From a virus (Duplodnaviria; Heunggongvirae; Uroviricota; Caudoviricetes), in IMG/VR virus record IMGVR_UViG_3300045988_011059, positions 1 to 44,609 of that record: a DNA stretch of 44,609 nucleotides; one strand, 5' to 3'. The notes below the pieces were generated by a model. The model made no database searches and had not been told where the DNA came from. It saw only the letters and a program-made list of their open reading frames with translations. Position 1 is the stretch's first letter. Every line of letters starts with the position of its first letter. Below are positions 4,145-39,942 of this stretch, in pieces. Both the position numbers and the translations under genes were made by a program.

Positions 4145-5626
4145 ATGTTAACTATGAACGGTCAGAATCAGGGTGTTAAGACAAAACACCGGGAATGGCT
4201 GCATCACTTCGATAAATGGCAGAAGGTACGCCACGCACTGGAAGGCGACCTTATTCGCTATCTTCGAAATGTCGGGAAGAACGAACCAGACCCGGCCTAC
4301 GCGGCACAGCGCCAGGAAGAATACGAGAACGGGGCTATCTGCTACAACTTCACTAAACGCACCCTGGCGGGGATGGTTGGCAGTGTCATGCGCAAAGACC
4401 CGGAACAGATCATTCCACCTGAACTGGAGTACCTGTTACGCAACGCTGACGGTTCTGGCGTCGGGCTGTGGCAGCACGCGCAGGACACGTTGATGGAGAT
4501 TGACTCGGTAGGGCGTGGTGGGTTGCTGGTGGACGCCCCGGAGACGGCTGCGGCGACGGCAGCTGAACAGAACGCCGGTTTATTAAACCCGGTCATCGCG
4601 TTCTATACCGCGGAGAACATCATCAACTGGCGACTGACCCGTATCGGTTCGGTTAACCGCGTGACAATGGTAGTGCTGCGTGAGGTGTGGGAATACTCAG
4701 AACCGGGTGCAGAGTTCGAAACAAAGTTCGGTGAGCAATATCGCGTCCTTGACCTTATTGATGGACGCTACCGTCAGCGCATTTACCGCTTCGATGCAGA
4801 AGGTGGCGCACAGGGTGAAGTAAAAGAAATCTTCCCGGAACTTGGCGAACAGTTGCGCGGCAAAATCCCGTTCACGTTCATCGGCGCAAGCAACAACGAT
4901 GCAACCATCGACGACGCACCTTTGCTGCCGTTGGCTGAGCTTAATATCGGACATTTCCGCAACAGCGCGGACAATGAGGAATCCAGCTTCGTTGTAGGCC
5001 AGCCCACTCTGTTCATCGCCCCGGGTGAGAACATGAGCATGGAACAGTGGGCAGAAGCCAACCCACACGGCGTGCGCATGGGGTCGCGCTCAGGCCATAA
5101 CATCGGTTACGGCGGCAATGCGTTTCTGGTTCAGGCGGGAGAGAACAACCTCGCCAAACAGAATATGCTGGACAAAGAGAATCAGGCCATCCAGATTGGT
5201 GCGCAGCTTATCACCCAGACGCAGCAAATCACCGCGGAATCGGCCCGGCTGCAACGCGGCGCTGATACGTCCGTTATGGCAACAATCGCACGTAACGTAA
5301 GCATGGCGTATACAGATGCGTTGCGCTGGGTTGCTGCGATGCTAGGGCTACGTGAAGGCACAGAGATTGAGTTCAAGCTGAATATGGAGTTCTTCCTGCA
5401 GCCTATGACCGCTCAGGACCGTGCACAGTGGATGGCGGACATTAACGCAGGCCTGTTACCGGCTACTGCTTACTACGCAGCGTTGCGTAAGGCGGGTGTA
5501 ACTGACTGGACGGATGAGGACATTCAGAACGCTATCGAGGATGCACCTCTGCCGATGGGCGCGGTTACCAAGGTAGCGGGGGAGATTCCGCAGTCGGCGC
5601 AGCAACAAGATACCATTCAGCGGTAA
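4145..5626 (+). CDS. Portal protein
   Basis: 493-aa ORF directly after the terminase with AAGAGGA RBS; call is by position and size. Confidence 0.75.
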   Translation: MLTMNGQNQGVKTKHREWLHHFDKWQKVRHALEGDLIRYLRNVGKNEPDPAYAAQRQEEYENGAICYNFTKRTLAGMVGSVMRKDPEQIIPPELEYLLRNADGSGVGLWQHAQDTLMEIDSVGRGGLLVDAPETAAATAAEQNAGLLNPVIAFYTAENIINWRLTRIGSVNRVTMVVLREVWEYSEPGAEFETKFGEQYRVLDLIDGRYRQRIYRFDAEGGAQGEVKEIFPELGEQLRGKIPFTFIGASNNDATIDDAPLLPLAELNIGHFRNSADNEESSFVVGQPTLFIAPGENMSMEQWAEANPHGVRMGSRSGHNIGYGGNAFLVQAGENNLAKQNMLDKENQAIQIGAQLITQTQQITAESARLQRGADTSVMATIARNVSMAYTDALRWVAAMLGLREGTEIEFKLNMEFFLQPMTAQDRAQWMADINAGLLPATAYYAALRKAGVTDWTDEDIQNAIEDAPLPMGAVTKVAGEIPQSAQQQDTIQR

Positions 5627-5636
5627 GTTCGCATAT

Positions 5637-5657
5637 AGCCCCGAAAGGGGCTTTCTT
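5637..5657 (+). terminator. Stem-loop / weak terminator
   Basis: GCCCC-GAAA-GGGGC followed by TTTCTT. Confidence 0.45.
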
Positions 5658-5695
5658 ATAGTATGCTATTAACTTTAGCACCACAGGGTTTATCT

Positions 5696-6739
5696 ATGAG
5701 CTTACTTACATCCCTAATAAGCCACCAGATATGGCTACAACGAGCCGCTTCCGGTGAAGTGAAAGACCTCACACCATTCATTCAGGAGATGCGAGACGAA
5801 ATCAAACGGCAGGTTCTGCTATTCGGTGACGACGGTCGCAGCACTGCGCGACTGAATAAACTGTTACGCGACCTCGAAGAAGCACTGGCAGGACTTACCG
5901 GTGACTGGCAAACAAAACTGACAGAAGACCTTAAGGAACTGGTGGCATATGAGGCTGAGTGGAACGTAAAGACGCTGACGGCTAACGTTAACGCGGAATT
6001 TGTTACGCCTACCGCAGAACAGGTGTGGGCCGCTGCCGAGTTTCAGCCATTATCGTTAAGTGACAAGCCTGTTGATTTCACGAAGCTGATGTCTGGCTGG
6101 GGTGAAACGGAGGTCGCGCGCCTGGTAACTGGCGTTAAGATGGGTTTCGTACAAGGCCAAACCACACGGCAGATTGTTAAAAATGTCGTAGGCGCTGGTG
6201 GACTGGCGGACATTTCAGAACGAAACGCTGCGACGGTAATCCGCACCGCTCTGTCTCACGTATCCAACGAAGCACGTAACGAGACGTACCGCCAGAACGA
6301 CGACATCATCGAGAAGTACGAGTGGGTGTCGACGCTGGACAGCCGTACCAGTACGATTTGCAGGGCCAGAGACGGGATGACGTGGGAAATCGGTAAAGGG
6401 CCGATGCCACCCGCCCATCCGAACTGCCGGTCGTGCACGGCTCCGGTAATCAGTTCCGAGTTCGACTTCCTTGATAAAGGTGCAAAACGCGCGGCTAAGG
6501 GTGCGGATGGCGGTACTCAGGTAAGCGCAGACACCACTTACTACGAGTTCCTGAAACAACAACCCGCATGGTTTCAGGACCAGGCGCTCGGCCCGGTGCG
6601 AGGTAAGATTTTCCGCAACAGCGGTATATCGCCGGAAGAGTTTCGCGTAATATCTGTAGATGGTTTCGGGAATCCGCTCACGCTTAAGCAGATGGCGGAA
6701 CTCGATAAACGTGTTGCTGATTATCTGAAAGGGGATTAA
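5696..6739 (+). CDS. Head morphogenesis / minor capsid protein
   Basis: About 350-aa ORF after the portal; start could be ATG 5663 or 5696; call mostly positional. Confidence 0.6.
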   Translation: MSLLTSLISHQIWLQRAASGEVKDLTPFIQEMRDEIKRQVLLFGDDGRSTARLNKLLRDLEEALAGLTGDWQTKLTEDLKELVAYEAEWNVKTLTANVNAEFVTPTAEQVWAAAEFQPLSLSDKPVDFTKLMSGWGETEVARLVTGVKMGFVQGQTTRQIVKNVVGAGGLADISERNAATVIRTALSHVSNEARNETYRQNDDIIEKYEWVSTLDSRTSTICRARDGMTWEIGKGPMPPAHPNCRSCTAPVISSEFDFLDKGAKRAAKGADGGTQVSADTTYYEFLKQQPAWFQDQALGPVRGKIFRNSGISPEEFRVISVDGFGNPLTLKQMAELDKRVADYLKGD

Positions 6740-7200
6740 TGATGGGCTTTTTCAAAGTAACTGATGTACCGTCGCGTCGCGTAGTTCAGTACGCCCGAGT
6801 GTCTGGTTCTGGTGAGAACGTGGTATTTATCGAAGATGAAAGTGTACTTGGTACACCAGTAGACGACATGCCGTTTGCAGATAAAACCGGTATTGCGCTG
6901 CCGGCGGCGGGTATGCTTTATGAAATTCCGTATCTGGCTGATGCTGGCGACGTGTATTTCTCGGTGCAACCGAAAGACACAGAACTGGCAGACGGCAGCG
7001 CAACTATCACGGTCGAAGTTAAGGCTGGTAAAGCGCCGTATGCTCTGACCTGGTACAAAGATGGTAAGGAAGTTGTAAACGCACCCGAAGAGGCTTTGTC
7101 TCTTACGGTTAACGCGGCAGGCGAATACTTCGTTAAAGTTACCGATGCCGATGGTGTAGAGGCCGTCAGTAAAGCGGCGAAGGTCACTAAGCCTGAATAA
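6739..7200 (+). CDS. Ig-like domain protein (capsid-associated?)
   Basis: C-terminal segment YALTWYKDGKEV...GEYFVKVTDADG is typical of a bacterial Ig-like beta-sandwich. Confidence 0.55.
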   Translation: MMGFFKVTDVPSRRVVQYARVSGSGENVVFIEDESVLGTPVDDMPFADKTGIALPAAGMLYEIPYLADAGDVYFSVQPKDTELADGSATITVEVKAGKAPYALTWYKDGKEVVNAPEEALSLTVNAAGEYFVKVTDADGVEAVSKAAKVTKPE

Positions 7201-7203
7201 ACT

Positions 7204-7225
7204 AAGGCCCCGAAAGGGGCTTTTT
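7204..7225 (+). terminator. Rho-independent terminator
   Basis: AAGGCCCCGAAAGGGGCTTTTT hairpin plus T-run. Confidence 0.7.
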
Positions 7226-7254
7226 AGCGCCTGTTATTATTCCAGTTATTCCTC

Positions 7255-7305
7255 CTAATTGTAAATGTTGGAATAAACTATTCGAATAGTTGACTTTTCA
7301 CTAAA
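7255..7305 (+). promoter_or_regulatory. Putative regulated promoter: ATGTTGGAATAA box, palindrome ACTATTCGAATAGT, then TTGACT
   Basis: Read directly; ATGTTGGAATAA recurs at 8045-8056 upstream of the scaffold gene. Confidence 0.35.
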
Positions 7306-7542
7306 AATGTGATAAGCTCCACCTGAGCTTGTGAAGTATGAACAAGCGACCGCGGCGCGGGCAGGTAACGGAGCGGGACGTAAGTCCTGAGTGTAGTTAC
7401 GCTGACGCGTTCGGAAGGGCCATACTCTATTGCTTGTGTAAAAAGGAACGGGTTTACTGAGATTACGCCGTTTCTATGTTTAAATGATAAGGACTAGCGC
7501 CCCGCTTTATGGCGGGGCTTTACTTATCGAGAAAGGAGAAAC

Positions 7543-21895: not shown

Positions 21896-22257
21896 ATATT
21901 AACGACTACACGGGTATACCTTACGACTTTCGCAAGCGCAATTGCTGGCATCACGTGCGCATTGTACGGGCAGATGCTGGGTTAGAAACTCCGGCGTTCG
22001 ACGTTACAAGCCCCACGGCAATTAACGAAGCGTTTGACGAAGGCCACCGCAACACGAAGGGGCTTACGAAAATCGATAAGCCTGAAAACTTCTGTGCGGT
22101 GCTTATGGGGTACCGCCGTGGTGGGCGTATCGTGTGGCACGCGGGAGTTTACTTCGACGGGATGGTGAGCCATTGCGAGCTTGCGTCCCGTCAGGTACGG
22201 CTTGACAGGCTGGTGGACCTCAGAGACACGTACACGGAGATTGAATTTTGGCGATAA
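21892..22257 (+). CDS. Tail assembly protein with NlpC/P60-like Cys-His motif
   Basis: NCWHHV...H motif typical of NlpC/P60 cysteine peptidases, as in lambda gpK-type proteins. Confidence 0.6.
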   Translation: MNINDYTGIPYDFRKRNCWHHVRIVRADAGLETPAFDVTSPTAINEAFDEGHRNTKGLTKIDKPENFCAVLMGYRRGGRIVWHAGVYFDGMVSHCELASRQVRLDRLVDLRDTYTEIEFWR

Positions 22258-24803
22258 TCCTGCACTACACGCGAAATGCCGACGGGGCTTTCGACCGTAC
22301 AAAACACGTTGGGATGCCGATGGAGTTTGTTGTTAACCGTATTCCTGACGGTGTGCCTGTGCGCGTCTACCTCGGCGAGATTGGCGATGACACGGACGTA
22401 ACGGACGACTTCGACGCGCTTAAAGACGAAGACGCTGTGTACCACATTATAGAGGGTGCTGGCAGCGGCGCGCTTGGCGCAGTTAGTAAGGTGTTCGGCT
22501 TTATCCTTAAGCCAATTGCTAAGTTGTTTGGTCTGAACACGGCAGCCAACGCCAACTACACGGCGACTAACAACCAGACAACATCACCGAATAACAGCCT
22601 CACAGACCGCTCCAACAAGCCGCGTCCTTACGCGCGCTCTTATGACATCTGCGGGACTGTGCAGACAATCCCCAACGACCTTATGCAGACGTATAAGGCG
22701 TTCAACTCCACTGGTGCTTTGCTGGAATATTCGTACTATGACGCAGGGCGCGGGCATCTGCATATTGAGGCTGATGGCGTAACAGAGGGCGACACCCTGA
22801 TAAGCGACATCACAGGTTCCTCTGTTGCCGTATACGCGCCGTATACGTCACCGAACAACACCACATCGCCGCAACTACAAATCGGCGACGTCATTGACCA
22901 GAAACTCTATGTAACATACTCCAACGACGACGTTGACGGTATCGTACTGAAAGCGCCAAACGACATCGGGGCTAACCCAAGCTCCGGTGGAACCGCCAAA
23001 CGTATTTCAACCACCGGCTATATCTATGACCCGTCTGGTGACTCTGCTTTTTCTGAGTTTCTTAGCGTCGGTGGTGTCGCGGTGCTGAGCAACTTTGACG
23101 TTAAGGACGTCACTAACCTGAACGGCTCGTTTGAGGTTTTATACGTTGACGACTTTGAGGTTCGGTTGTATGTCGGGGATATAGGTAACTGGGGCAACCT
23201 TAATAACGGAGAGACTTACGCGCTTACAGAGCGTTCAGATACGTTTATCGGTCCGAGCAACACCTATGACGTCTCTCTTACGGACTGGTATTACATGGTA
23301 CGCGGAGAAGTTGACCGGGTGCTTGCTAACGTTGCCGGGCAAAACGGCCTCTACAAATACGACGGCGGCTATAACCGCACCAGCGTAACCGTAGAACTCC
23401 AGTACCAGATGATTGATTCTCAGCGCAACCCATTGAGCGATATTTACACGGTACAGGCCACAATTACAGGTAACAATACTGACTACGTCGGCACGTCCAT
23501 TTATGGGCAGTTGCCAACTGCATCGCGTTTCCGCGCCCGTATGCGTCGTGTAACTAATTTCGATAAAGACTACGACGGTACGGTAAGTGACGAGATAACC
23601 TTCATAAACCTGTATGGCCAGTCGCTGGATACAACCCCTCACTACGGAAACCGAACTACCGTACACTGCGCCCGTAAACAGACGCCGCGCGCCGCCAGTA
23701 TCGATAACCCTGAACTGCGCATGATTGCAACCGAGATGTGCTACAAATACTTAGGCAATGGGGTATTTGATACGGTAATGTCACCAAATACTCAGGCTGT
23801 GCAGTCACTAATTCGACTGGCACGTGACCCTGCGGTAGGTAATCTGGAACTGACAACGGCAAACATGGACAAGTTACTCGCCGTGCAGGAAGAGATTGAG
23901 TCCTATTTCGGAAGTGAATTGGCGGGGCAGTTCTGCTACACGTTCGACGACTACGACACTACGATGCAGGACATCGTTCAGACCATAGCGGAAGCCGTGT
24001 TCTGTACTGCGTACCGTAAAGGCGCGGATATTATGCTTCGATTTGACCGTCCGGTCGCTGGACCAGAGATGGTGTTCACCCACCGCAGCAAAACGACCGG
24101 TACGGAGAAATGGACCCGCACGTTCAATGATTCGACAACCTACGATAGCCTGTCGTTCTCGTACATCGACCCGGATACTAACGTACAGGAAACTATTTAT
24201 ATCCCGGAAGAACTCGGTGCAAACACTGAGGAATACGAATCAAAGGGCGTGCGCAACTATCAGCAAGCGTACTGGCTGGCGTGGCGTCGCTACCAACGCA
24301 ATGCGTTAAGTAAAGTTGTCGTAGAGTTCGAAGCTACGGAAGAAGGTGCGCTCGCTACCCCCGGCGGGGTAATCAGCGTGGTTAAAGGCTCTCGCATTGC
24401 GCCGCAAGATGGTTATGTTGTTGCCGTTAATGGGCTTACACTGACACTGTCCCAGCCTGTTACGTTTACTCCCGGTGATGACCACTCCATCATCCTCAAG
24501 AAGCGCGACGGCTCCGTACAGAGTATATCTGTTATCAAAGGAAGCCACGACCGCGAGGTGATTATGCTCTCTGCGCCGGAGGAGGCAATCTACACAGGGA
24601 ATAGCGCGCTAAAAACTGAGTTTTCATTCGGTAACGAAGCAAGGCATAATGCTCAGAAGATAGTTGTTTCTTCAATAGACCCTGGCGACGACCGCACGGT
24701 CAAGATTACGGGTTACAACTATGACGACGGATTCTACAAATACGACGGCGTCGCGCCATACGGCAGCGGTTTCTCCGACGGATTCAGCAACGGTTTTAAT
24801 TAA
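22248..24803 (+). CDS. Tail tip / host specificity protein (gpJ-like)
   Basis: 851-aa ORF after the gpK-like gene; TTG start with GGAGA RBS. Confidence 0.7.
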   Translation: MAIILHYTRNADGAFDRTKHVGMPMEFVVNRIPDGVPVRVYLGEIGDDTDVTDDFDALKDEDAVYHIIEGAGSGALGAVSKVFGFILKPIAKLFGLNTAANANYTATNNQTTSPNNSLTDRSNKPRPYARSYDICGTVQTIPNDLMQTYKAFNSTGALLEYSYYDAGRGHLHIEADGVTEGDTLISDITGSSVAVYAPYTSPNNTTSPQLQIGDVIDQKLYVTYSNDDVDGIVLKAPNDIGANPSSGGTAKRISTTGYIYDPSGDSAFSEFLSVGGVAVLSNFDVKDVTNLNGSFEVLYVDDFEVRLYVGDIGNWGNLNNGETYALTERSDTFIGPSNTYDVSLTDWYYMVRGEVDRVLANVAGQNGLYKYDGGYNRTSVTVELQYQMIDSQRNPLSDIYTVQATITGNNTDYVGTSIYGQLPTASRFRARMRRVTNFDKDYDGTVSDEITFINLYGQSLDTTPHYGNRTTVHCARKQTPRAASIDNPELRMIATEMCYKYLGNGVFDTVMSPNTQAVQSLIRLARDPAVGNLELTTANMDKLLAVQEEIESYFGSELAGQFCYTFDDYDTTMQDIVQTIAEAVFCTAYRKGADIMLRFDRPVAGPEMVFTHRSKTTGTEKWTRTFNDSTTYDSLSFSYIDPDTNVQETIYIPEELGANTEEYESKGVRNYQQAYWLAWRRYQRNALSKVVVEFEATEEGALATPGGVISVVKGSRIAPQDGYVVAVNGLTLTLSQPVTFTPGDDHSIILKKRDGSVQSISVIKGSHDREVIMLSAPEEAIYTGNSALKTEFSFGNEARHNAQKIVVSSIDPGDDRTVKITGYNYDDGFYKYDGVAPYGSGFSDGFSNGFN

Positions 24804-24815
24804 AGAGGACTCTAT

Positions 24816-26735
24816 ATGTCAAGCGGATGCGGTGACGTTTTAAGCCTGGCGGATTTACAAACCGCTAAGAAACACCAGATTTTCGAAGCTGAGGTAATTA
24901 CCGGGAAACAAGGTGGTGTCGCTGGTGGCGCTGATATCGATTACGCGACCAATGCCGTTACAGGGCAGACCCAGAAGACACTGCCGGCGGTGTTGCGTGA
25001 CGCCGGGTTCAGGCCAGCTTCTTTTAATTTCACCACCGGCGGCACCTTAGGCGTGAACGACGCTGACCTGGCCGTTCTGTGGCCGGAGTCCGACGGCGGG
25101 GACGGTAACTATTACGCATGGAAAGGGTCACTGCCTAAAGTAATCCCGGCGGCATCCACACCTGATTCAACCGGAGGTATCGGTAGCGGGGCCTGGTCAG
25201 TGGTTGGCGATGTCACTTTGCGCAGCGACTTAAAATCTCCTGATGGGATGTACATGGTCGGAGGTGACCTAAAATCCTACGGTGCTGATGCTTCTGGGGT
25301 ATTGCCGTGCGACGCCTATATTTCGCAAATGCTAGCTGATAAAAAATTCATAGTTAACTCTGGTACTTACCTAATAACATCATCTCATGAGGTGGATATT
25401 TCATCCCTTGAATATGTCGAGGTTGGCCCGGACGTTGAATTTATCATTAGAAGCAACATCAACGGATTTATATTTAAGAATCCAAACGCCAATTTCGACG
25501 CAAACGGCATGCGGATAACAGTAGACATCCCCGGCGGTGGATACAGTAGGATAGCCTTAACTTTAAGAGGTAGCAAATACTACACCGGACCTTCTAACCT
25601 TGGGCGATTAACCCAGAAGAATAAATTCGGTCCGTTTTACGTGTTTAACCGACAAGGGGCTGTTAAACAAGAATCAGCGTCTGCTCCTGTTACCGATGAG
25701 GGGTACGGCTTCTCCATAGACTGCAACTCAGCAGATGAAGAAATACTGATATGGAACGAAGTTGATGTCTCATCCACTGGGTTTACTGTGGCTCATGCAA
25801 TAGGCGTAGGAACAAATCCACTTAACTTTATTTCATCTCTTGACCTTAAGTTGGTATCCTGGTTCAGTACATATCATTTCAGGGATACCAGCATCCCGCA
25901 ATCTGGTGGCAACGTAGCTGGAGGAATTGGTGATGTGCATGTGCGATTACAATCACAACCTCACGCTCAGATGGTTAAGGTTGTGCATATGGAACACGCG
26001 CCGGGGTTCATGAGCGGCTGCCGATTTGACCTATCAATCTGGGACCCTAACGCCTACGGCTATACCGCTAATGTGGTAGATGCATCCGTGACAAACGAAT
26101 ATACAAATACTATGGAGCGGAAATCGTACCCGTTAACTCGAGTGCTGAATATGGTAGATGGTAGTATATTCCCGGTAGTGAATTACACCAGTAGTATCCA
26201 GCAGTCGGATATACTTTCCAGTAGTGACCCTGAGCTGGCTAAGTACTTGTACCTGTCAACAGTAACTCCAGAAATGACGGTGATACAGGCGTGTAATGCC
26301 ATTAAAACATGGTGTAACGAAAATAACATCCGTAATAATTTTGAATTCAAAGTGTTTTTAGGTGACTCTACCGTCGATATACGTAACGTTTTTCTCCCGT
26401 GGATAACAGCTATAGGTGACTACTCCGGATACTTACATCTATATGCTACTTTTTACAATGGCATTATAAATACAGTGCGTGTCGAGTACGAGGTTAATCC
26501 TATAACCAGCGGGGGAAAGACAGAGAAACACGAAATATTATGGACAAACACAACAGGTCTTGTGTCGCATCGCCTGATTGAGTACTCATTCGGCACCACT
26601 GCTGAGATAAAAAGCAAGGTAGCCATACAGGCAAAAGGGTTCACAACTTTCGACTCTACTTTTAACCTCCCTGTTTGGTATAATGGAAATAATTCATGGC
26701 TTAAAGCAGACGGTTCTGTTGCGTACACCCTATAA
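24816..26735 (+). CDS. Tailspike / tail fibre protein
   Basis: 639-aa last gene of the tail operon; GC-richer N-terminal part, AT-rich C-terminal part; followed by a strong terminator. Confidence 0.7.
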   Translation: MSSGCGDVLSLADLQTAKKHQIFEAEVITGKQGGVAGGADIDYATNAVTGQTQKTLPAVLRDAGFRPASFNFTTGGTLGVNDADLAVLWPESDGGDGNYYAWKGSLPKVIPAASTPDSTGGIGSGAWSVVGDVTLRSDLKSPDGMYMVGGDLKSYGADASGVLPCDAYISQMLADKKFIVNSGTYLITSSHEVDISSLEYVEVGPDVEFIIRSNINGFIFKNPNANFDANGMRITVDIPGGGYSRIALTLRGSKYYTGPSNLGRLTQKNKFGPFYVFNRQGAVKQESASAPVTDEGYGFSIDCNSADEEILIWNEVDVSSTGFTVAHAIGVGTNPLNFISSLDLKLVSWFSTYHFRDTSIPQSGGNVAGGIGDVHVRLQSQPHAQMVKVVHMEHAPGFMSGCRFDLSIWDPNAYGYTANVVDASVTNEYTNTMERKSYPLTRVLNMVDGSIFPVVNYTSSIQQSDILSSSDPELAKYLYLSTVTPEMTVIQACNAIKTWCNENNIRNNFEFKVFLGDSTVDIRNVFLPWITAIGDYSGYLHLYATFYNGIINTVRVEYEVNPITSGGKTEKHEILWTNTTGLVSHRLIEYSFGTTAEIKSKVAIQAKGFTTFDSTFNLPVWYNGNNSWLKADGSVAYTL

Positions 26736-26740
26736 AACTA

Positions 26741-26762
26741 AGGCCCCAAACGGGGCCTTTTC
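26741..26762. terminator. Bidirectional rho-independent terminator
   Basis: AGGCCCC-AAAC-GGGGCCTTTT between convergent operons. Confidence 0.7.
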
Positions 26763-26763
26763 T

Positions 26764-26901
26764 CTACTCTTCTGATAACTTCTCCAGTACATACGCCAGT
26801 TGCGCATTAGCGGCGTCTCGCTGTTGTCGTAGTCGTAGAACCTCTTCTTCGAGTTCTTTGATACGTTTTTGCAATGCCGGAATCGTGGATATGATGTTCA
26901 T
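26764..26901 (-). CDS. Hypothetical coiled-coil small protein (45 aa)
   Basis: Hand-translated; ATG overlaps the helicase stop (ATGA). Confidence 0.35.
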   Translation of the reverse strand: MNIISTIPALQKRIKELEEEVLRLRQQRDAANAQLAYVLEKLSEE

Positions 26902-28322
26902 TTCTTACTCCTTCTCTTCATATAATTAAGTAGTTCGTCCTGTACGGACCTTTTCTCGTCTGTACGCGCGGCGACAACTTCATCAAGAGTATCTCTGGCT
27001 ATTATTTGATAAATGAATACAGACCGTTTGTATCCAGATTGCATCTGCCTTACCGGGCCTATACGCTCGATAACCTGCAAATAATGTTCAAGGTTCCACC
27101 CCTGACTCATAAAGGCCATGTGGTGCCCGCCGTGTTGTAGCGACAGTCCGTGGCCTGCGGAGGCTGGGTGTATCAGGAGCATTGGTATTTCCCCGCGGTT
27201 CCACGCGTCCATCTGCTTATTACCCTTAGCGCCTTTAGAAAATGCCTGGGCCTGAGGGAATCGCTTAAGGATGCGCTCCAGTTCGTGCTTGAACTGATAC
27301 GCCACCAGTAACGGCGCACCCTGTAGCTCCTCAACAATTGACTCGAGTGCATCCAGTTTCGTGTCGTGCACTTTCTCCCAGTCTTTCGTTGCTTCACCAT
27401 CCGGCCCTGATACATACACGGCACCGGATGCGATCTGCAAGCACTTTGAGGTCTTCGCCGCGGCGTTAGCCGCTTCAACTTCTCCGCTCTCCAGTTCCGC
27501 GAATAACTTCTCCTCCATATCTATGTATGCCTGACGCGCTTTCTTCGGCAGGTCGATTTCAACCGGTACAATAATCGGCGCCTCGCAACCGAACCACTCG
27601 GCGGCGTCAATCGTGAGACTGATGTCCTTCATCTTCTGGTGAATTTCATTATCCGCACCAGGGCGGGCGTGGTATTCGCGCGCCATCGCCGACTTACCTT
27701 TCTGTACCGAGTTAAACCAGCGGTCCGTGAACGCTGTGTACGAAGAACCGAGGCGCTCACCCGCGTCGATAAACCAGTTCTGCCCCCACAAGTCTTTTAG
27801 TCCGTTTGGCGACGGCGTACCCGTCAGGTTGATGAAACGCTTAACCTTACCGAACGCAACCTTACTGAGCGCCTTCGCCCTCTTACTACCGCCTGAACGG
27901 CTGCGGAATGATTTCAGCTTCGTGCTTTCATCGGCGACAATAACCGTAAAAGGCCAGTCGTCTTTGCCGTAGTAGTCAATCAGCCACTCGATAACTTCGT
28001 AGTTGGTGCACACCACGTTAGCGTCAGACTCCAGCGCCGCGATGCGGCGCTTCTCTGAACCTGTTGCGTCTACAACATTCAGACACGGGAACCGCCATTT
28101 CTCTTGTTCTGCGGGCCACGTACCGGACGCAACTCGTAGCGGGGCAAGGATTAACACACGGTCGTCATCATTAAGTTGGCCGTTGCGGAACAGTCGGTTT
28201 AAAGCCCACAGTACGCTGCCAGTCTTCCCGGCACCCATGCTTGCCCATATGTTGCAGCGATGGTGCCGCAGCATGAACGAAGTCATGAGCTTCTGGTACT
28301 CTCGCCTTTGAAACTTAGACAT
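26898..28322 (-). CDS. SNF2-family helicase
   Basis: Walker A MGAGKTGS and DEAH-like DESTK motif; start at ATG 28322, not the track start. Confidence 0.8.
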   Translation of the reverse strand: MSKFQRREYQKLMTSFMLRHHRCNIWASMGAGKTGSVLWALNRLFRNGQLNDDDRVLILAPLRVASGTWPAEQEKWRFPCLNVVDATGSEKRRIAALESDANVVCTNYEVIEWLIDYYGKDDWPFTVIVADESTKLKSFRSRSGGSKRAKALSKVAFGKVKRFINLTGTPSPNGLKDLWGQNWFIDAGERLGSSYTAFTDRWFNSVQKGKSAMAREYHARPGADNEIHQKMKDISLTIDAAEWFGCEAPIIVPVEIDLPKKARQAYIDMEEKLFAELESGEVEAANAAAKTSKCLQIASGAVYVSGPDGEATKDWEKVHDTKLDALESIVEELQGAPLLVAYQFKHELERILKRFPQAQAFSKGAKGNKQMDAWNRGEIPMLLIHPASAGHGLSLQHGGHHMAFMSQGWNLEHYLQVIERIGPVRQMQSGYKRSVFIYQIIARDTLDEVVAARTDEKRSVQDELLNYMKRRSKK

Positions 28323-28998
28323 GATTAGCCTCGTAAACTGCTTTTGCGAAACCTCGCGGGGTGAGGCTGCGGATTGTTTTTGTTCTGGCGCTCTTGCCGC
28401 CCAGTTTAGCCCAGCCCGGATTATCTCCACTACCCGCGGCAACATCGGCAACGTCGGGCATAACAAACCCATTGCCCGCCCACAGGCACGTCTTTTTAAC
28501 ATAGGCATCTCGCGCTGGAATAACATCCGGAAACATTGGATGTGTGTCGTCTTCCGGTAGATAGCCGCCGTAATCGTGTGGGTCGAATACATAATCGGGC
28601 TTACGCCATAAAGATGAAAGAACGCTAACTGGGTTCTCAATCATATAAGGTACGTTGTACTTTTTAGCCAGACGCGCTGCCACTTTGCATGTAATCACGG
28701 CCTCTACCTGAAACGTTGGGTTCTTCTTGCGCTTAGCCTCGAAATGACGCGACCCACTAACGGCTAAATCTGTGCAAGGAGGGAACGCAAAAATAATATC
28801 CGGCGCGGCTTCGAAGTCGAATTTATTATCAATCCACGCGTTTATATAGTGGATGTTCTCGTGTTCAACCTTTGCACCCAATAGTGCGTAGTCGCCGTGG
28901 TCAGCGCCGTCGTAGTTGAAACAGTAGCAAGTATGGCCCGCTTCCGCCCACGGCTGGGCCATAAGGCCCGAACCGTCAAATAATGACCAGACAATCAT
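28315..28998 (-). CDS. DNA (cytosine-5)-methyltransferase-like protein, compact
   Basis: Motif I LFDGSG, motif IV PPCTD, motif VI ENP in canonical order; only 227 aa. Confidence 0.65.
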   Translation of the reverse strand: MIVWSLFDGSGLMAQPWAEAGHTCYCFNYDGADHGDYALLGAKVEHENIHYINAWIDNKFDFEAAPDIIFAFPPCTDLAVSGSRHFEAKRKKNPTFQVEAVITCKVAARLAKKYNVPYMIENPVSVLSSLWRKPDYVFDPHDYGGYLPEDDTHPMFPDVIPARDAYVKKTCLWAGNGFVMPDVADVAAGSGDNPGWAKLGGKSARTKTIRSLTPRGFAKAVYEANHV

Positions 28999-29186
28999 TT
29001 CAACACCAGAACTAACTCTTTACGCCCGAACGCCGTAATATTGCCGGTTACATCTTCGATAACCAGTTTACCGTTCGACTCGACGTACACCGTATCAACG
29101 GCAACAGGACGACGGGTCTTAACGTTGAAAATCATGTCGCCCGGTACGATGTCACGTGCTGGTTTGCGGTCATATTCGTGTTTCAT
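28995..29186 (-). CDS. Hypothetical protein (63 aa)
   Basis: ORF track; ATGA coupling. Confidence 0.5.
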   Translation of the reverse strand: MKHEYDRKPARDIVPGDMIFNVKTRRPVAVDTVYVESNGKLVIEDVTGNITAFGRKELVLVLK

Positions 29187-36066: not shown

Positions 36067-38334
36067 TTATTCCAAATCATCCTCGGTCACCACCAGCATT
36101 TCATTCGGTTCGTATAGTGTCTTCGGAATCTTGTTATCCGTTATCCGGGTATTCAGCCTGTAACGGCCTGGTATTATCTGATTGTTTTCGTCGGTCCCTG
36201 GCACAAGATACCCCGCCTCAACCATTTTCTTAATCTTCCCGCGTTCTATGGCTTCTTTGGAGTTAAACGCCTTTGCGTTAGGGTCGGACTGTGCGAGCTT
36301 ATTCGCTGCGGCTACCGTGATGCCCTCGTTGCCGTTGTAGGTTCCTTCCGCCAGTTCAAACGCCGCCAGTATCGTGGCTTCTGAACTGTTGACGGCGTTC
36401 TCTACGGTTTTACGTACGTTTTCTTTACCTTCCTTCGTCAGTCCTTCTTCCCGCTCTTTCTCCTCGTCAGTCTTAAACGGCTCGAAGCCCCACGGCATCA
36501 GCACAAGCGCCTTGTGTGGCTCAGGCAGGTCCAGGTTTACGATTGTGCCGTATTCCTCTGTGCTACCCAGGAACTCAACTGCACGGTACTCTTTCGGCGG
36601 CGGGGCTTCACGGAACTGTACCGACTCCAGAACCATGCCAACTGTCTTCTGTTGTGGCCCGTGCTTAAATTTCGAGTGATATACGTTTATCTGACGGTCG
36701 GTAGCGCGTTCAATTGTCAGTTCCACGTCGACGCCAGCGTACAGCGCCCCACTACCACGGGCTTTCTTTCCGCCCTTCGGTGTGTGGTGGACAACACCTA
36801 CCGCGGCTTTAGTCGCATCACGTACTTCTTTCAGGATGGCGATAACTTTACCCATACCGATTGCCGTTGATGAGCTGTTCTCGTCGAACTTATCAATCGT
36901 CAGGGCCAGCGTCTGGTTAAGGGTGTCGAACGCAACCATGCCGATTGGCTCGTCGCCAGCAGTTTCGCGCATTAACTTAATCAGGCTTTTAAGTTTTCCG
37001 ACCTCACCCATGTCTATGACATGTACATAATCTTTACCCTCCACGCCGTATTTAGCCGCGAGCGCATCAATACGTGTACGTGTGGCCGCGCCGCCCTCAC
37101 CGTCTATATAGAAATGGTGGCAACGCTGGGTGTCCGCCCCCGCGAACCGGTATCCGGCGGCGCTGAGGTACATCATCCCCAGCGTATAAAACGATTTGTA
37201 CGTGCCAGATTCCCCGACGATATCCCAGATACAATCCGACGGCATGTACCCTTCGACGACGAAATCAGCCTTTACCGGTTCTGGTAACTCGTCCTCCTCT
37301 GAGTCCTCGTCGTCTTCCAGGTCGTCGAGACTGCATGAAACAGATTCACGTGCACCCCAGCCGATTGCCTCGGCTACTTCACTGAACGGCAGACCAGTCG
37401 CATCGCACGCGTATTTCCACACCTCTTTCGGCGACATGCCTTCGGTTGCCGTAATGTCGGTGTCGTGAATCATGGTTACGTTCGGCGCTTCGTACCCCTC
37501 TCGCGGGAAACACAGCAGAAAGTCATCCGGGCGCGGCGTCGGGTCGCTGTAGTTCTCTGCGTGTTCCGGTGTAGCTGGCATCTTAAGGCCGCGCGGTGTC
37601 ATGATGCCGCCGTACTCGAACGCCAGTGCTTCGAACGCATCTGTAAACGCGGTGCGCAGTTCTTCTGGTATCTGGTAATCCGATGCGCTGCTAACGTCAA
37701 CGGCGGGGATGCCTTCCAGTAATTCGTCCGGGTCAATCAGGTCGTTGCGGCGCGACCAGATAACATGAGAGCCAACTGGCGGCAGGTACATCGGCTGCGA
37801 CAGAGTGAACCCGCTGCGGTCCGCGCCCATGCCTTTGAAGAAGTGCTCAAGCAACCCATGACGAACACGGATGATGTCGCCGACTTCAACCGGACGGGCC
37901 AGCGGCATGACGACGCGAAAGCGCGGGGACTCGTCGGTATGTGATGCCGTGGTATAGAGGCACATCGCACGGCGGCTTCGCTTAACCAGACGCACCGCTT
38001 CCTGATACTCTTCCGGCGTTGCGCTGTCGAAGTCCAGATACGCCAGCGACGATTTGCTTACAGATGCGTCGCAGCGATAGAAAAAGCCTTTACGCGCTTG
38101 CTTAAAGTCACCGGTTTCCGGGTCTTTCACGGTGCTGTGTGTAGAGTCACACGCGGCGGTGATATAGCCGGGCGCTGTCTTCGGGTTAATCCCATCACGA
38201 ACAGCATCAAGCGGCTGGATTAACGCTTTCAGGTCGTCCAGTGTTGCCGTGTGTGTGGTTCTGACGTTTATATCCTTTTTCTCTGCTCGCGCGTTGCGGC
38301 GTGACCACGAGTAGGATAAAATTACATCGGACAT
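36067..38334 (-). CDS. Primase-helicase (primase/polymerase N-domain plus RecA-like ATPase)
   Basis: Walker A GESGTYKSF and Walker B MVAFD in the central domain; 755 aa; AAGGA RBS. Confidence 0.8.
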   Translation of the reverse strand: MSDVILSYSWSRRNARAEKKDINVRTTHTATLDDLKALIQPLDAVRDGINPKTAPGYITAACDSTHSTVKDPETGDFKQARKGFFYRCDASVSKSSLAYLDFDSATPEEYQEAVRLVKRSRRAMCLYTTASHTDESPRFRVVMPLARPVEVGDIIRVRHGLLEHFFKGMGADRSGFTLSQPMYLPPVGSHVIWSRRNDLIDPDELLEGIPAVDVSSASDYQIPEELRTAFTDAFEALAFEYGGIMTPRGLKMPATPEHAENYSDPTPRPDDFLLCFPREGYEAPNVTMIHDTDITATEGMSPKEVWKYACDATGLPFSEVAEAIGWGARESVSCSLDDLEDDEDSEEDELPEPVKADFVVEGYMPSDCIWDIVGESGTYKSFYTLGMMYLSAAGYRFAGADTQRCHHFYIDGEGGAATRTRIDALAAKYGVEGKDYVHVIDMGEVGKLKSLIKLMRETAGDEPIGMVAFDTLNQTLALTIDKFDENSSSTAIGMGKVIAILKEVRDATKAAVGVVHHTPKGGKKARGSGALYAGVDVELTIERATDRQINVYHSKFKHGPQQKTVGMVLESVQFREAPPPKEYRAVEFLGSTEEYGTIVNLDLPEPHKALVLMPWGFEPFKTDEEKEREEGLTKEGKENVRKTVENAVNSSEATILAAFELAEGTYNGNEGITVAAANKLAQSDPNAKAFNSKEAIERGKIKKMVEAGYLVPGTDENNQIIPGRYRLNTRITDNKIPKTLYEPNEMLVVTEDDLE

Positions 38335-38392
38335 ATTATAATTCCTTCAGCAAGTAATTTGGCCTCGGCGTTCACCGCGTCGGGGCTTTCTT

Positions 38393-38626
38393 TTATTCCA
38401 GGTCTTCTAAAGTAGCGGTCATTCCGCGAACTTCAGCAACAGCACTATATTTCCCACCAACATTTTTCACGACACCAGATTTAACCAGCACCTTCAACGA
38501 CCCTTCAATAATGGCGGAACTATAGTACCTAAAATAACTACGACGCAAGTCCATAACGCTGCACGACCCTTTTTTACGTGTTAGCGAAACGACAGCCGTA
38601 AATACCCGGGACTGGAACTCGGTCAT
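38393..38626 (-). CDS. Hypothetical protein (77 aa)
   Basis: ORF track; ATGA-coupled to the upstream HTH gene. Confidence 0.5.
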   Translation of the reverse strand: MTEFQSRVFTAVVSLTRKKGSCSVMDLRRSYFRYYSSAIIEGSLKVLVKSGVVKNVGGKYSAVAEVRGMTATLEDLE

Positions 38627-38793
38627 TTTACATTCTCCTTAATCCACGCTTCCACTTTCTCCGGGTCAAACGTACCTGGCTGCCGGCGGCCCATAATGCG
38701 GGTACAACAATCAGGGAACTTCCCACTCTTTAACCAGTTATTAAGCGTACGACGAGTAACCCCAATACGCTCAGCTACCTCATTCTGCGTCAT
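38623..38793 (-). CDS. Small HTH DNA-binding protein (AlpA/excisionase-like)
   Basis: MTQNEVAERIGVTRRTLNNWLKSGKFP HTH; ATG 38793 lies downstream of the predicted promoter, the track TTG start does not. Confidence 0.6.
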   Translation of the reverse strand: MTQNEVAERIGVTRRTLNNWLKSGKFPDCCTRIMGRRQPGTFDPEKVEAWIKENVK

Positions 38794-38825
38794 TCTCAAA
38801 CCCTCATTATCAGTTAACGAAACCA

Positions 38826-38854
38826 AGTATACATTGCGAATAATGGGAAATCAA
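38826..38854 (-). promoter_or_regulatory. Sigma70-like promoter TTGATT-N17-TATACT (minus strand)
   Basis: Read on the reverse complement; sits just upstream of the first leftward gene. Confidence 0.5.
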
Positions 38855-39150
38855 ACATAATCGCACCTATTGACATTATGAAAATCTTCGTTTAAGGTGC
38901 TTCTATATCTTAGTTACTTTGATTCCTGTTCACCTTGTAATACCCGCTTGAAACGCAGCGGCGCACCAGCGCCAGCGAAGTGTTAAGCGGCAGATTACTG
39001 AACATAAGAATTATCGTAACTTTCCTTCCTTAGTATCTCCGGTTGCCCTGGGCAAGCTCTATTCTCATCGGCAGCATATCTCTTAAGTATATGATAATTA
39101 AAAGTTTCTATAGTTGCCGTAAGCAAGGTAGAGAGTACTTCACTCCGCTG

Positions 39151-39170
39151 GGGTGGGCTAACGCCCACCC
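39151..39170. other. Perfect GC-rich hairpin GGGTGGGC-TAAC-GCCCACCC
   Basis: 8-bp inverted repeat read directly, inside the 465-bp divergent control region. Confidence 0.6.
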
Positions 39171-39229
39171 ACTGCGTTGCGTACTCTTTTAAGAAACGAA
39201 CGAATCACAACGGCAACGTAACTATTCTC

Positions 39230-39258
39230 TTGCACACCCCAACATAATAGGATACTAT
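39230..39258 (+). promoter_or_regulatory. Early-type promoter TTGCAC-N17-TACTAT
   Basis: TTGCAC 39230-39235, TACTAT 39253-39258; flanked by ACTATTC motifs. Confidence 0.55.
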
Positions 39259-39292
39259 TCACTTATCGAAACGAGACATAAGGAATTTAGAA

Positions 39293-39511
39293 ATGAACAA
39301 AGCGACCGCAAGCGTAGTTTCCGCAATAAAAGAAGTTTACGGCATCGATATCTCAGAGCGAGTAATCATCGGGAACAAACGAAACTTCTTTACGTTCGAC
39401 ACCGACGGAATGGATGAAAATGATTTTATTAACGTACAACGTTTCGCCAACGGTAAAGGGCTTCGTAACGAGCCTGCGGGTTACAAGAAATTCGCTATCT
39501 ACTTTAAATAA
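39293..39511 (+). CDS. Hypothetical protein (72 aa)
   Basis: ORF track; AAGGA RBS; AT-rich. Confidence 0.6.
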   Translation: MNKATASVVSAIKEVYGIDISERVIIGNKRNFFTFDTDGMDENDFINVQRFANGKGLRNEPAGYKKFAIYFK

Positions 39512-39529
39512 GACAGAGGGGTGAGGGTT

Positions 39530-39709
39530 ATGTTTAAGCACGGTCAGTTGGTTAAAACGAAAGACTGCGGGTACGGCGTCATTGTGCGAGGTTCTAAAAT
39601 ACCAGGGAGATATTTTTTGACTAATCCGTACTGGGATTTTGATATGTGGTTTTACGAGTACGAGCTAACACTCATCGGCAACAATTTTAAATTCAAAGGG
39701 GCAAAGTGA
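39530..39709 (+). CDS. Hypothetical protein (59 aa)
   Basis: ORF track frame from ATG 39530 after a GAGGGGTGAGGG RBS. Confidence 0.5.
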   Translation: MFKHGQLVKTKDCGYGVIVRGSKIPGRYFLTNPYWDFDMWFYEYELTLIGNNFKFKGAK

Positions 39710-39942
39710 TGCAAATCATAATTACAGATAACACCGTTACCTATGAAACAGCTAACGATACTCTGGAAAGCATAGGCGTAAATATTGGCGATGTTTTTGA
39801 TGTGCTGGACTCCTGCGAGTACGGCTGGTGGATTAAGGTCAGGCATTACAAAGTGCCAGTAACTAAGGCCGAAGCGGAAATATACACAACGGCATCGAAT
39901 CATGATGCTCGTGCCGACGACTCCGAGGGAGGTTGCCGTTAA
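39709..39942 (+). CDS. Hypothetical protein (77 aa)
   Basis: ORF track frame; ATG 39709 overlaps the upstream stop. Confidence 0.5.
   Translation: MQIIITDNTVTYETANDTLESIGVNIGDVFDVLDSCEYGWWIKVRHYKVPVTKAEAEIYTTASNHDARADDSEGGCR

Follow-up and report, generated by a model that had tools for sequence, protein, structure and literature searches.

The tailspike gene of a tailed virus of the class Caudoviricetes (IMG/VR record IMGVR_UViG_3300045988_011059), which occupies positions 24816..26735 on the plus strand of the 44,609-nucleotide (nt) stretch analyzed here (hereinafter the window), raises the question of whether a single receptor-binding protein has been put together from parts with different histories and, if so, where these parts were joined. 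An earlier note, made from the letters of the DNA alone, had described an abrupt drop in guanine-plus-cytosine (GC) content about 500 nt into this gene and had read it as the mark of a C-terminal host-recognition or enzymatic module exchanged onto a conserved N-terminal anchor. Our analysis makes it very probable that the gene is indeed a recombinant, in which a Kagunavirus-type anchor is linked to a horizontally acquired receptor-binding module of 491 residues; the discordant homology of the two parts, the coincidence of breaks at the left edge and the beta-helix fold of the C-terminal part all speak for the exchange that had been proposed.

Analysis of base composition reveals that the break is real and sharply placed. 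The gene is an uninterrupted open reading frame (ORF) of 639 amino acids (aa) with an ATG start, and the frame stays open across both of the junctions described below. In 200-nt windows its GC content is 0.60-0.62 at 24900-25199, falls to 0.445 at 25200-25399 and to 0.38 at 25300-25499, and stays at 0.36-0.51 from the latter to the end of the gene, so that the sliding-window profile contains a significant shift rather than none. The maximum-likelihood single changepoint lies at nt 501 of the gene (window position 25317, codon 167; 2-log-likelihood support interval 25204-25341), with 56.1% GC to its left and 43.1% to its right. Its log-likelihood ratio (LLR) of 12.6 is above that of all 500 codon shuffles (mean 2.5, maximum 11.95), and the break is the strongest intragenic one among the 14 genes of at least about 1.1 kb in the window, the next having an LLR of 6.4. 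The drop thus falls where the earlier note had placed it, and the two AT-rich runs that it had quoted are each present exactly once, at 25576-25599 and 26451-26474. Its description of the first 160 or so codons as GC-rich likewise stands; its addition that they resemble the rest of the genome does not, since the 5' part has about 56% GC as against 51.2% for the genome, and the size of the step is enlarged for this very reason. Across the changepoint, GC falls at all three codon positions: from 0.593 to 0.461 at the first (GC1), from 0.515 to 0.400 at the second (GC2) and from 0.563 to 0.431 at the third (GC3; about 0.58 to 0.43 by another estimate). The C-terminal part, with a GC content of 0.433, is in the lowest 0.2% of windows of the same length, and the module as delimited below has 43.7% GC and a GC3 of 0.434, as compared to a GC3 of 0.53-0.64 for all genes of at least 350 aa in the window.

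Separate searches with the two parts of the gene, which had been suggested as a check, recovered different sets of relatives. The 5' 484 nt matched 500 phage records, nearly all of them Guernseyvirinae (Salmonella phages of the Jerseyvirus type and Escherichia coli phages of the genus Kagunavirus), at 70-89% identity and over just the first 190-410 nt. The 3' 1436 nt, on the other hand, found three matches in a set of 50,697 phage records, and no Guernseyvirinae were among these three: AB4P2 (an unclassified siphophage; 97.4% identity), Baskent_phicoli_1 (a T7-like podovirus of the genus Kayfunavirus, Autographiviridae; 90.5%) and BEK6 (Drexlerviridae; 66.6%). Consistent with its Guernseyvirinae relatives, the N-terminal region (residues 1-138) matches the tail spike family phrog_29731 (E 4.4e-78), and the first 194 nt of the gene are 85-89% identical to other Kagunavirus sequences. 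This anchor can be resolved into two segments. Segment A (24816..24999; aa 1-61) is the Kagunavirus-type N-terminal virion anchor, with identities to the phages K1G and phiWAO78-1 of 70-100%, mostly 90-100%, in 30-nt windows. Segment B (25000..25180; aa 62-122) is a diverged Guernseyvirinae anchor part, only 60-66% identical to K1G, which constitutes the GC-richest part of the gene (60-62%). In the phage collection it comes closest to Jerseyvirus tailspikes (76%, with matches ending at 25180), and no relative above 80% nt identity was found there; its divergence next to the well-conserved segment A suggests that it might be a third, older recombination tract. Segment B leads into the Tail_spike_N domain (Pfam PF18668, the TSP1/Gp66 N-terminal domain; 25068..25211, aa 85-132), whose score of 57.9 bits (E 1.1e-15) exceeds the cut-off of 25. 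This connector is common to many tailspikes, and sequence matches in the PDB fall on the same residues (among them 5w6f, tailspike protein 3; 5w6h, tailspike protein 4; and 4oj5).

Pairwise BLAST comparisons delimit the exchanged segment from both sides. Homology to K1G stops at 25177 and that to phiWAO78-1 at 25002, and both resume at 26732, while homology to AB4P2 and Baskent_phicoli_1 starts at 25260 or 25242 and ends at 26725. The intervening left junction zone (25181..25330; aa 123-172) comprises a linker and the first ~24 residues of the module. In 30-nt windows, the zone reaches no more than 60-76% identity to AB4P2 as far as 25329, whereas the windows of the third segment (segment C), which starts at about 25330, match AB4P2 at 100%; 19 of the 59 differences between the window and AB4P2 are within the first 100 nt of the module. 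Because the differences are concentrated there, the latest left crossover can be placed, on the sequence, between about 25300 and 25330, that is, inside the module. The onset of the near-identical tract (25321-25330; BLAST match start 25321) coincides with the GC changepoint at 25317. The gene hence consists of at least three segments rather than two, and the module itself is mosaic. The right junction (26725..26735) covers the last three codons and the stop: the window tracks AB4P2 and Baskent_phicoli_1 up to ...GACGGTTCTGTxGCxTA and then turns to Kagunavirus sequence at the stop codon and the hairpin AAGGCCCCAAACGGGGCCTT that follows it. The conserved Tail_spike_N connector and the terminator are each located next to a junction. 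At this right edge, the breaks in composition and homology differ: homology ends at 26731, and low GC extends to about 27090. The tract from 26735 to 27090 (41-47% GC) is backbone DNA with 85-93% identity to K1G and phiWAO78-1 and holds a small reverse-strand gene and the 3' end of a helicase gene, which has an intragenic GC changepoint of its own at 27092 (LLR 6.4). Low GC therefore continues into the conserved backbone, and GC content alone would misplace the right edge of the foreign segment.

The module defined by these comparisons (25260..26732; aa 149-639) starts with the motif GGDLxSYGAD and has a constant boundary: in 21 aligned representatives it spans 490-491 residues and has the same N-terminal limit regardless of what precedes it. 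In pairwise comparison its nt identity is 96.0-96.3% to AB4P2 and 89.3-89.4% to Baskent_phicoli_1. At the protein level, it is found in 5 phage records (4 distinct phages), none of them Guernseyvirinae, and protein searches recovered 34 clusters (at 90% identity clustering) that carry it with 60-98% identity; the same 34 proteins were recovered by a further profile search with a word index. Given that an exhaustive search of 1.84 billion representatives with an HMMER profile yielded only 15 matches, the module family is small. Its N-terminal partners include PF18668 (in proteins of 630, 639 and 663 aa), the T7 fibre N-terminus PF03906 (718 aa) and the P22 head-binding domain PF09008 (618 aa, in E. 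coli and Salmonella prophages, one cluster having 281 members). It also occurs in 763-aa proteins and in BEK6-like fibres of 829-846 aa, and some of the carriers have no Pfam N-terminus. A relative at 33% identity is present in a P2-like Vibrio phage, and among 5,426 complete genomes of E. coli only 3 have a copy, which is of the P22 type and diverged (67% nt identity). The discordant relatives of the two gene parts, the presence of similar modules on unrelated backbones and morphotypes and the coincident breaks at the left edge are together the features of an exchanged cassette.

One of the 763-aa carriers (P0010) comes from a Logan contig of 154 kb (ERR11438005; contig L007), on which four tailspike-like genes follow one another between 238 and 10457 and code for proteins of 1017, 657, 763 and 704 aa. 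Two of the four have PF18668 and the third carries the module, and the layout resembles the multi-tailspike clusters of the Ackermannviridae. Comparison of the module with those of three other carriers (P0010, P0014 and P0019) indicated that similarity is unevenly distributed along it: P0010 is 47-60% identical over module aa 1-80 and 82-100% after that, and P0014, an E. coli P22-type protein, is 80-97% identical over aa 81-320 (the helix core) and 32-57% identical over aa 361-491. From this nested mosaicism it follows that recombination has acted at sub-domain boundaries too.

Low GC content accompanies the module wherever it is found, with 43.7% in the window, 42.2% in AB4P2, 42.9% in Baskent_phicoli_1, 39.5% in BEK6 and 36.7% in the Vibrio phage, each of these below the local flanks (42.8-51.2%). 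Since this holds for all carriers, AT-richness is a property of the module family, and the contrast stands out in the present case because the recipient has 51% GC and the adjoining anchor segment 60-62%. Furthermore, amino acid composition alone is insufficient to explain the AT-richness, because GC3 is low as well.

Structure prediction indicates that the first ~330 residues of the module (25260..26250) form a parallel beta-helix that is right-handed, presumably the glycan-binding and depolymerase body of the spike. They are followed by a C-terminal alpha/beta domain (26259..26732; module aa ~334-491) with mixed helices and strands, a predicted local distance difference test score (pLDDT) of ~85-93 and the terminal motif GFTTFDSTFNLPVWYNG..W..ADG, which weakly matches the C-termini of the tailspike 6nw9 and of Gp49 (9d83); this domain and the helix have diverged independently of each other in the P22-type relatives. 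A first AlphaFold model from 12 close homologues was poor (pLDDT 68.6, residues 231-333 unmodelled), while one from 18 sequences, including six relatives at 20-38% identity, reached a pLDDT of 86.5 and a predicted template-modelling score (pTM) of 0.68. The neighbors of this model in BFVD are tailspike and pectate-lyase proteins, and most of its top structural neighbors are depolymerases, lyases or glycosidases. Of the beta-helix or depolymerase fold that had been anticipated for the C-terminal part, the beta-helix is accordingly borne out by prediction, while enzymatic activity would be a plausible extension of it. Three aspartates of the module (D225, D262 and D274, corresponding to D373, D410 and D422 of the protein) are invariant across the extended family down to 20% identity and, by analogy with acid-catalyzed tailspike glycosidases, are candidate catalytic residues.

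Two of the carriers have been described in the literature. AB4P2 forms plaques with 10-mm halos, and a pectin-lyase-like beta-helix was predicted for the same module in the paper on this phage as well (PMC11889872). The one strain that Baskent_phicoli_1 lysed was that of its isolation (PMC13319148), which is consistent with a narrow glycan specificity. Neither of these two papers (PMC11889872, PMC13319148) contains biochemical or serotype data for the module. As an aside, AB4P2 is reported to form plaques only on Acinetobacter baumannii AB3/AB4, with none on any of 5 E. coli and 10 Salmonella strains. The backbone of this phage (OR544125; fibre gene at 5523-7415) is closest to those of the enterobacterial phages IME207, C1 and STGO-35-1 despite the Acinetobacter host, suggesting that the host assignment or the receptor biology of AB4P2 deserves a second look.

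Several of the above observations also weigh against the simplest form of the exchange that we propose, and they bear on alternatives that need to be considered side by side. The GC break could be intrinsic to a beta-helix module, through its usage of N, S, T, I and K or through selection for AT, rather than being a mark of foreign origin. The module is below its flanks in GC even in carriers at 43-46%, and GC1 and GC2 drop as much as GC3, so part of the AT-richness may come from amino acid composition or intrinsic constraint and not from a foreign donor genome. Yet GC3 also falls, from 0.56-0.58 to 0.43, which means that synonymous sites differ, and the discordant homology together with 96-97% nt identity to the module of an unrelated phage demonstrates exchange independently of composition; an intrinsic origin, which we regard as unlikely, thus accounts for part of the GC value and not for the mosaic structure. 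Even if exchange by recombination is accepted, its direction might have been the opposite, with the module being ancestral in this Kagunavirus sub-lineage and donated from it to phages of the AB4P2 type, to Kayfunavirus and to others. Polarization of substitutions, as a guide to direction, is underpowered (14 AT>GC against 8 GC>AT changes in the window lineage, 4 against 13 in that of AB4P2) and uninformative, because the window-specific changes lie mostly in the first 100 nt, probably derived from a different allele; furthermore, there are two clusters of 639-aa proteins of the Kagunavirus type (P0001 and P0006). Nevertheless, the anchor matches 500 records and the 3' part three, these three including no Guernseyvirinae, the GC content of the module is nearer to that of backbones of the AB4P2 type (46%) and of Drexlerviridae (43%) than to that of the present genome (51%), and the more distant relatives of the module are in non-Guernseyvirinae contexts, all of which makes donation out of this lineage quite improbable. 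An artefact of assembly or sequencing that joined two phages is, in turn, hardly credible. The abruptness of the junction, beyond which nothing else points to it, has to be set against the intact frame over both junctions and the recurrence of the same 639-aa chimera, with the same neighbors, on an independent contig of 44,112 bp from another sample (L008). That contig has the Kagunavirus gene order, a module 98% identical to the one described here and a DNA identity of 96-100% to the window across the left junction; the second cluster, P0006, is likewise found on 43-kb contigs. This explanation was rejected on the ground that the chimera recurs independently.

The evidence on function and on mechanism calls for similar caution. 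The module could be a non-enzymatic adhesin, a beta-helix fibre that only binds a receptor. A Foldseek search of the PDB with the module model found nothing at E <= 0.001, no catalytic family for the module was found by Pfam, PHROG or PDB sequence search, and its matches leave hydrolase, lyase and binding-only functions indistinguishable. With the full tailspike, Pfam gave no match beyond PF18668 at E <= 0.1, and residues 150-639, as a single sequence or as a module profile, have no sequence relative in the PDB other than at the short C-terminal motif. Hence, among the features typical of beta-helix tailspike depolymerases, the right-handed parallel beta-helix body is predicted, and a recognizable catalytic signature (Pectate_lyase_3, Beta_helix, GH28 or endosialidase) is lacking. 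Against a mere adhesin, to which we give about as little credence as to a purely intrinsic GC break, stand the predominance of depolymerases, lyases and glycosidases among the top structural neighbors, the invariance of the three acidic residues to 20% identity, the plaques with 10-mm halos of AB4P2, which has the same module (PMC11889872), and the enzymatic nature of the characterized Kagunavirus tailspikes (PMC11990801). With regard to mechanism, the right junction is without homology shared between donor-type and backbone sequences, and the latest left crossover lies inside the module, ~110 nt downstream of Tail_spike_N, instead of in the conserved connector. Simple homologous recombination at conserved motifs does not, therefore, fully explain the junctions.

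In light of these considerations, we favor acquisition of the module by a Kagunavirus-type tailspike and propose the following scenario. The gene would encode the single tailspike of a Kagunavirus-like siphophage, with aa 1 to ~122 representing the lineage's own anchor, which ends in Tail_spike_N and probably docks a trimeric spike on the tail tip beside the J-like protein. Residues 149-639 would constitute a self-contained, horizontally acquired module with near-identical copies on different anchors elsewhere. As a trimer, the module is likely to bind, and probably cleaves, a host surface polysaccharide (O-antigen or capsule), which could confer host specificity and give the tail tip access to the outer membrane. 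The receptor-binding part may have been replaced by recombination, from the connector region at one end to the stop codon or terminator at the other. As the last exchange appears to be recent, given 96-97% nt identity of the module to the AB4P2 copy, the AT-richness persists in this genome. A more far-reaching version, in which the module represents an uncharacterized and very small family of depolymerases that moves as an unusually promiscuous cassette among at least six virion attachment systems, with nested recombination of sub-modules, is one that we put forward as a long shot.

Phages that depend on glycans have their host range set by tailspike modules, and knowledge of the exact limits of the module (aa 149-639, with a constant GGDLxSYGAD start and an end just before the stop codon) is consequently of direct use for host-range engineering. 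The locus offers a clean natural example of one cassette on siphovirus, T7-like, P22-like, BEK6-type (Drexlerviridae) and multi-tailspike anchors, and it flags a small beta-helix family that lacks biochemical characterization. In the far-reaching version given above, and provided that the A. baumannii host reported for AB4P2 is correct, the module would also cross between Enterobacterales phages and Acinetobacter phages while keeping an identity above 96%; the receptor would then have to be a surface glycan that is shared or cross-reactive, or the cleavage chemistry would have to be new.

The genomic surroundings of the tailspike support its placement. By sequence, the window derives from what is best described as a Kagunavirus-like (Guernseyvirinae) siphophage: the region 22000-29000 is 86-91% identical to the Kagunavirus phages phiWAO78-1, K1G and JSSK01 with a coverage of 63-75%, the uncovered part being the 3' portion of the tailspike gene. 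The flanks of the gene are 86-92% identical to Kagunavirus genomes and have the same neighbors as on contig L008. Directly upstream, at 22248..24803 on the plus strand, is a gene for a J-like central tail tip protein of 851 aa (phrog_469, tail protein, E 9.7e-252; weak Pfam matches to Phage-tail_3 and FNIII-A_GpJ), with 89-92% nt identity to K1G and phiWAO78-1; it belongs to the conserved backbone and is the gene ahead of the tailspike in Kagunavirus. The helicase and methylase genes lie downstream and are encoded on the opposite strand. The GC-rich, conserved hairpin between them and the tailspike gene (26740..26759), recovered by a terminator scan, has a stem of 8 base pairs (6 G-C) that is the same in K1G and phiWAO78-1, with a loop that differs in phiWAO78-1; it is probably a bidirectional terminator between the convergent tailspike and replication genes.

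Some features of this neighborhood and of the remaining window are recorded here in their own right. The ORF of 580 aa at 26898-28640 (minus strand), which was mechanically called from a TTG start, is probably over-extended, in that it overlaps the methylase ORF at 28315..28998 and the helicase of relatives has 474 aa (L008, 8277-9701). A toprim-domain gene that phiWAO78-1 has between the small ORF and the helicase is not present in the window. A second stretch of low GC in the window (0.41-0.43), at 38300-39750, includes the largest GC step overall; it has only small ORFs, on both strands, among them one of 67 aa (38623..38826, minus strand) that resembles a DNA-binding regulator, and it looks like a divergent early or regulatory region.

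Comparison with known systems places the tailspike of the window among the Guernseyvirinae and Kagunavirus tailspikes, with which it shares the locus downstream of the J-like gene and the homologous N-terminal anchor, along with PF18668 above its gathering threshold. The endosialidase tailspikes of K1G, K1H and K1ind and gp35 of phiWAO78-1 occupy the same locus, after the J-like gene and before the conserved terminator. The anchors of the K1G and phiWAO78-1 proteins are homologous to that of the window, with the high identity noted above over aa 1-61 and a weaker one to aa 122, but their C-terminal modules are unrelated. That of K1G, encoded by a gene of 2955 nt, is an endosialidase without homology to 25177-26732, and that of phiWAO78-1 was likened by its annotators to tailspike protein 4 (TSP4) of CBA120. 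Conversely, the tail fibre of AB4P2 (WPJ20733; OR544125) and the tail protein of Baskent_phicoli_1 (XCD08726; PP766721) have the same 491-aa module, with aa identities of 96.5% and 93.9%, respectively, and the same GGDLxSYGAD boundary, but differ from the window in what precedes it: a 139-aa N-terminus on a different siphophage backbone in the former, and a T7 gp17-type N-terminus (PF03906) on a podovirus in the latter.

More distant systems share parts of this organization. TSP1-4 of CBA120 and the tailspikes of the G7C gp66 type have Tail_spike_N (PF18668), as does the window tailspike, followed by a beta-helix body, and sequence similarity ends after this connector. P22-type tailspikes, in which a head-binding domain is joined to a beta-helix endoglycosidase, follow the same domain logic, and the very same module is fused to PF09008 in the 618-aa proteins of E. 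coli and Salmonella prophages. The pectin lyase ORF18 of Geobacillus virus E2 (7chu), the Klebsiella depolymerase Depo32 (7vz3) and the K5 lyase (2x3h) have 11-12% sequence identity to the module; at this distance their catalytic residues cannot be mapped onto it, and its C-terminal domain has no match in them.

Exchange of modular receptor-binding proteins across genera of E. coli phages, Kagunavirus and Kayfunavirus included, has been described before (PMC10408124, Virol J 2023), and the modularity of Kagunavirus tailspikes is thus already published. According to that study, receptor-binding-protein genes have a conserved motif where the anchor ends and a terminator motif downstream (PMC10408124), and the architecture, a conserved anchor with a swappable receptor-binding domain, is the one seen in the window tailspike. 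BEK6 has 0 occurrences in that paper, and none of the three module-carrying phage records was found there, AB4P2 and Baskent_phicoli_1 having been described in papers of 2025 and 2026. Kagunavirus tailspikes encoded downstream of the J-like protein are further known from the BASEL collection to target O-antigen or capsule (PMC11990801). Unlike the cases treated in PMC10408124, the module of the window belongs to a small uncharacterized family, and its latest left crossover falls inside the module, not in the connector. Together these comparisons show that the locus bears out a principle that was already established and reveals no new one, and that it is a clear but ordinary case of a well-documented route by which phages change hosts.

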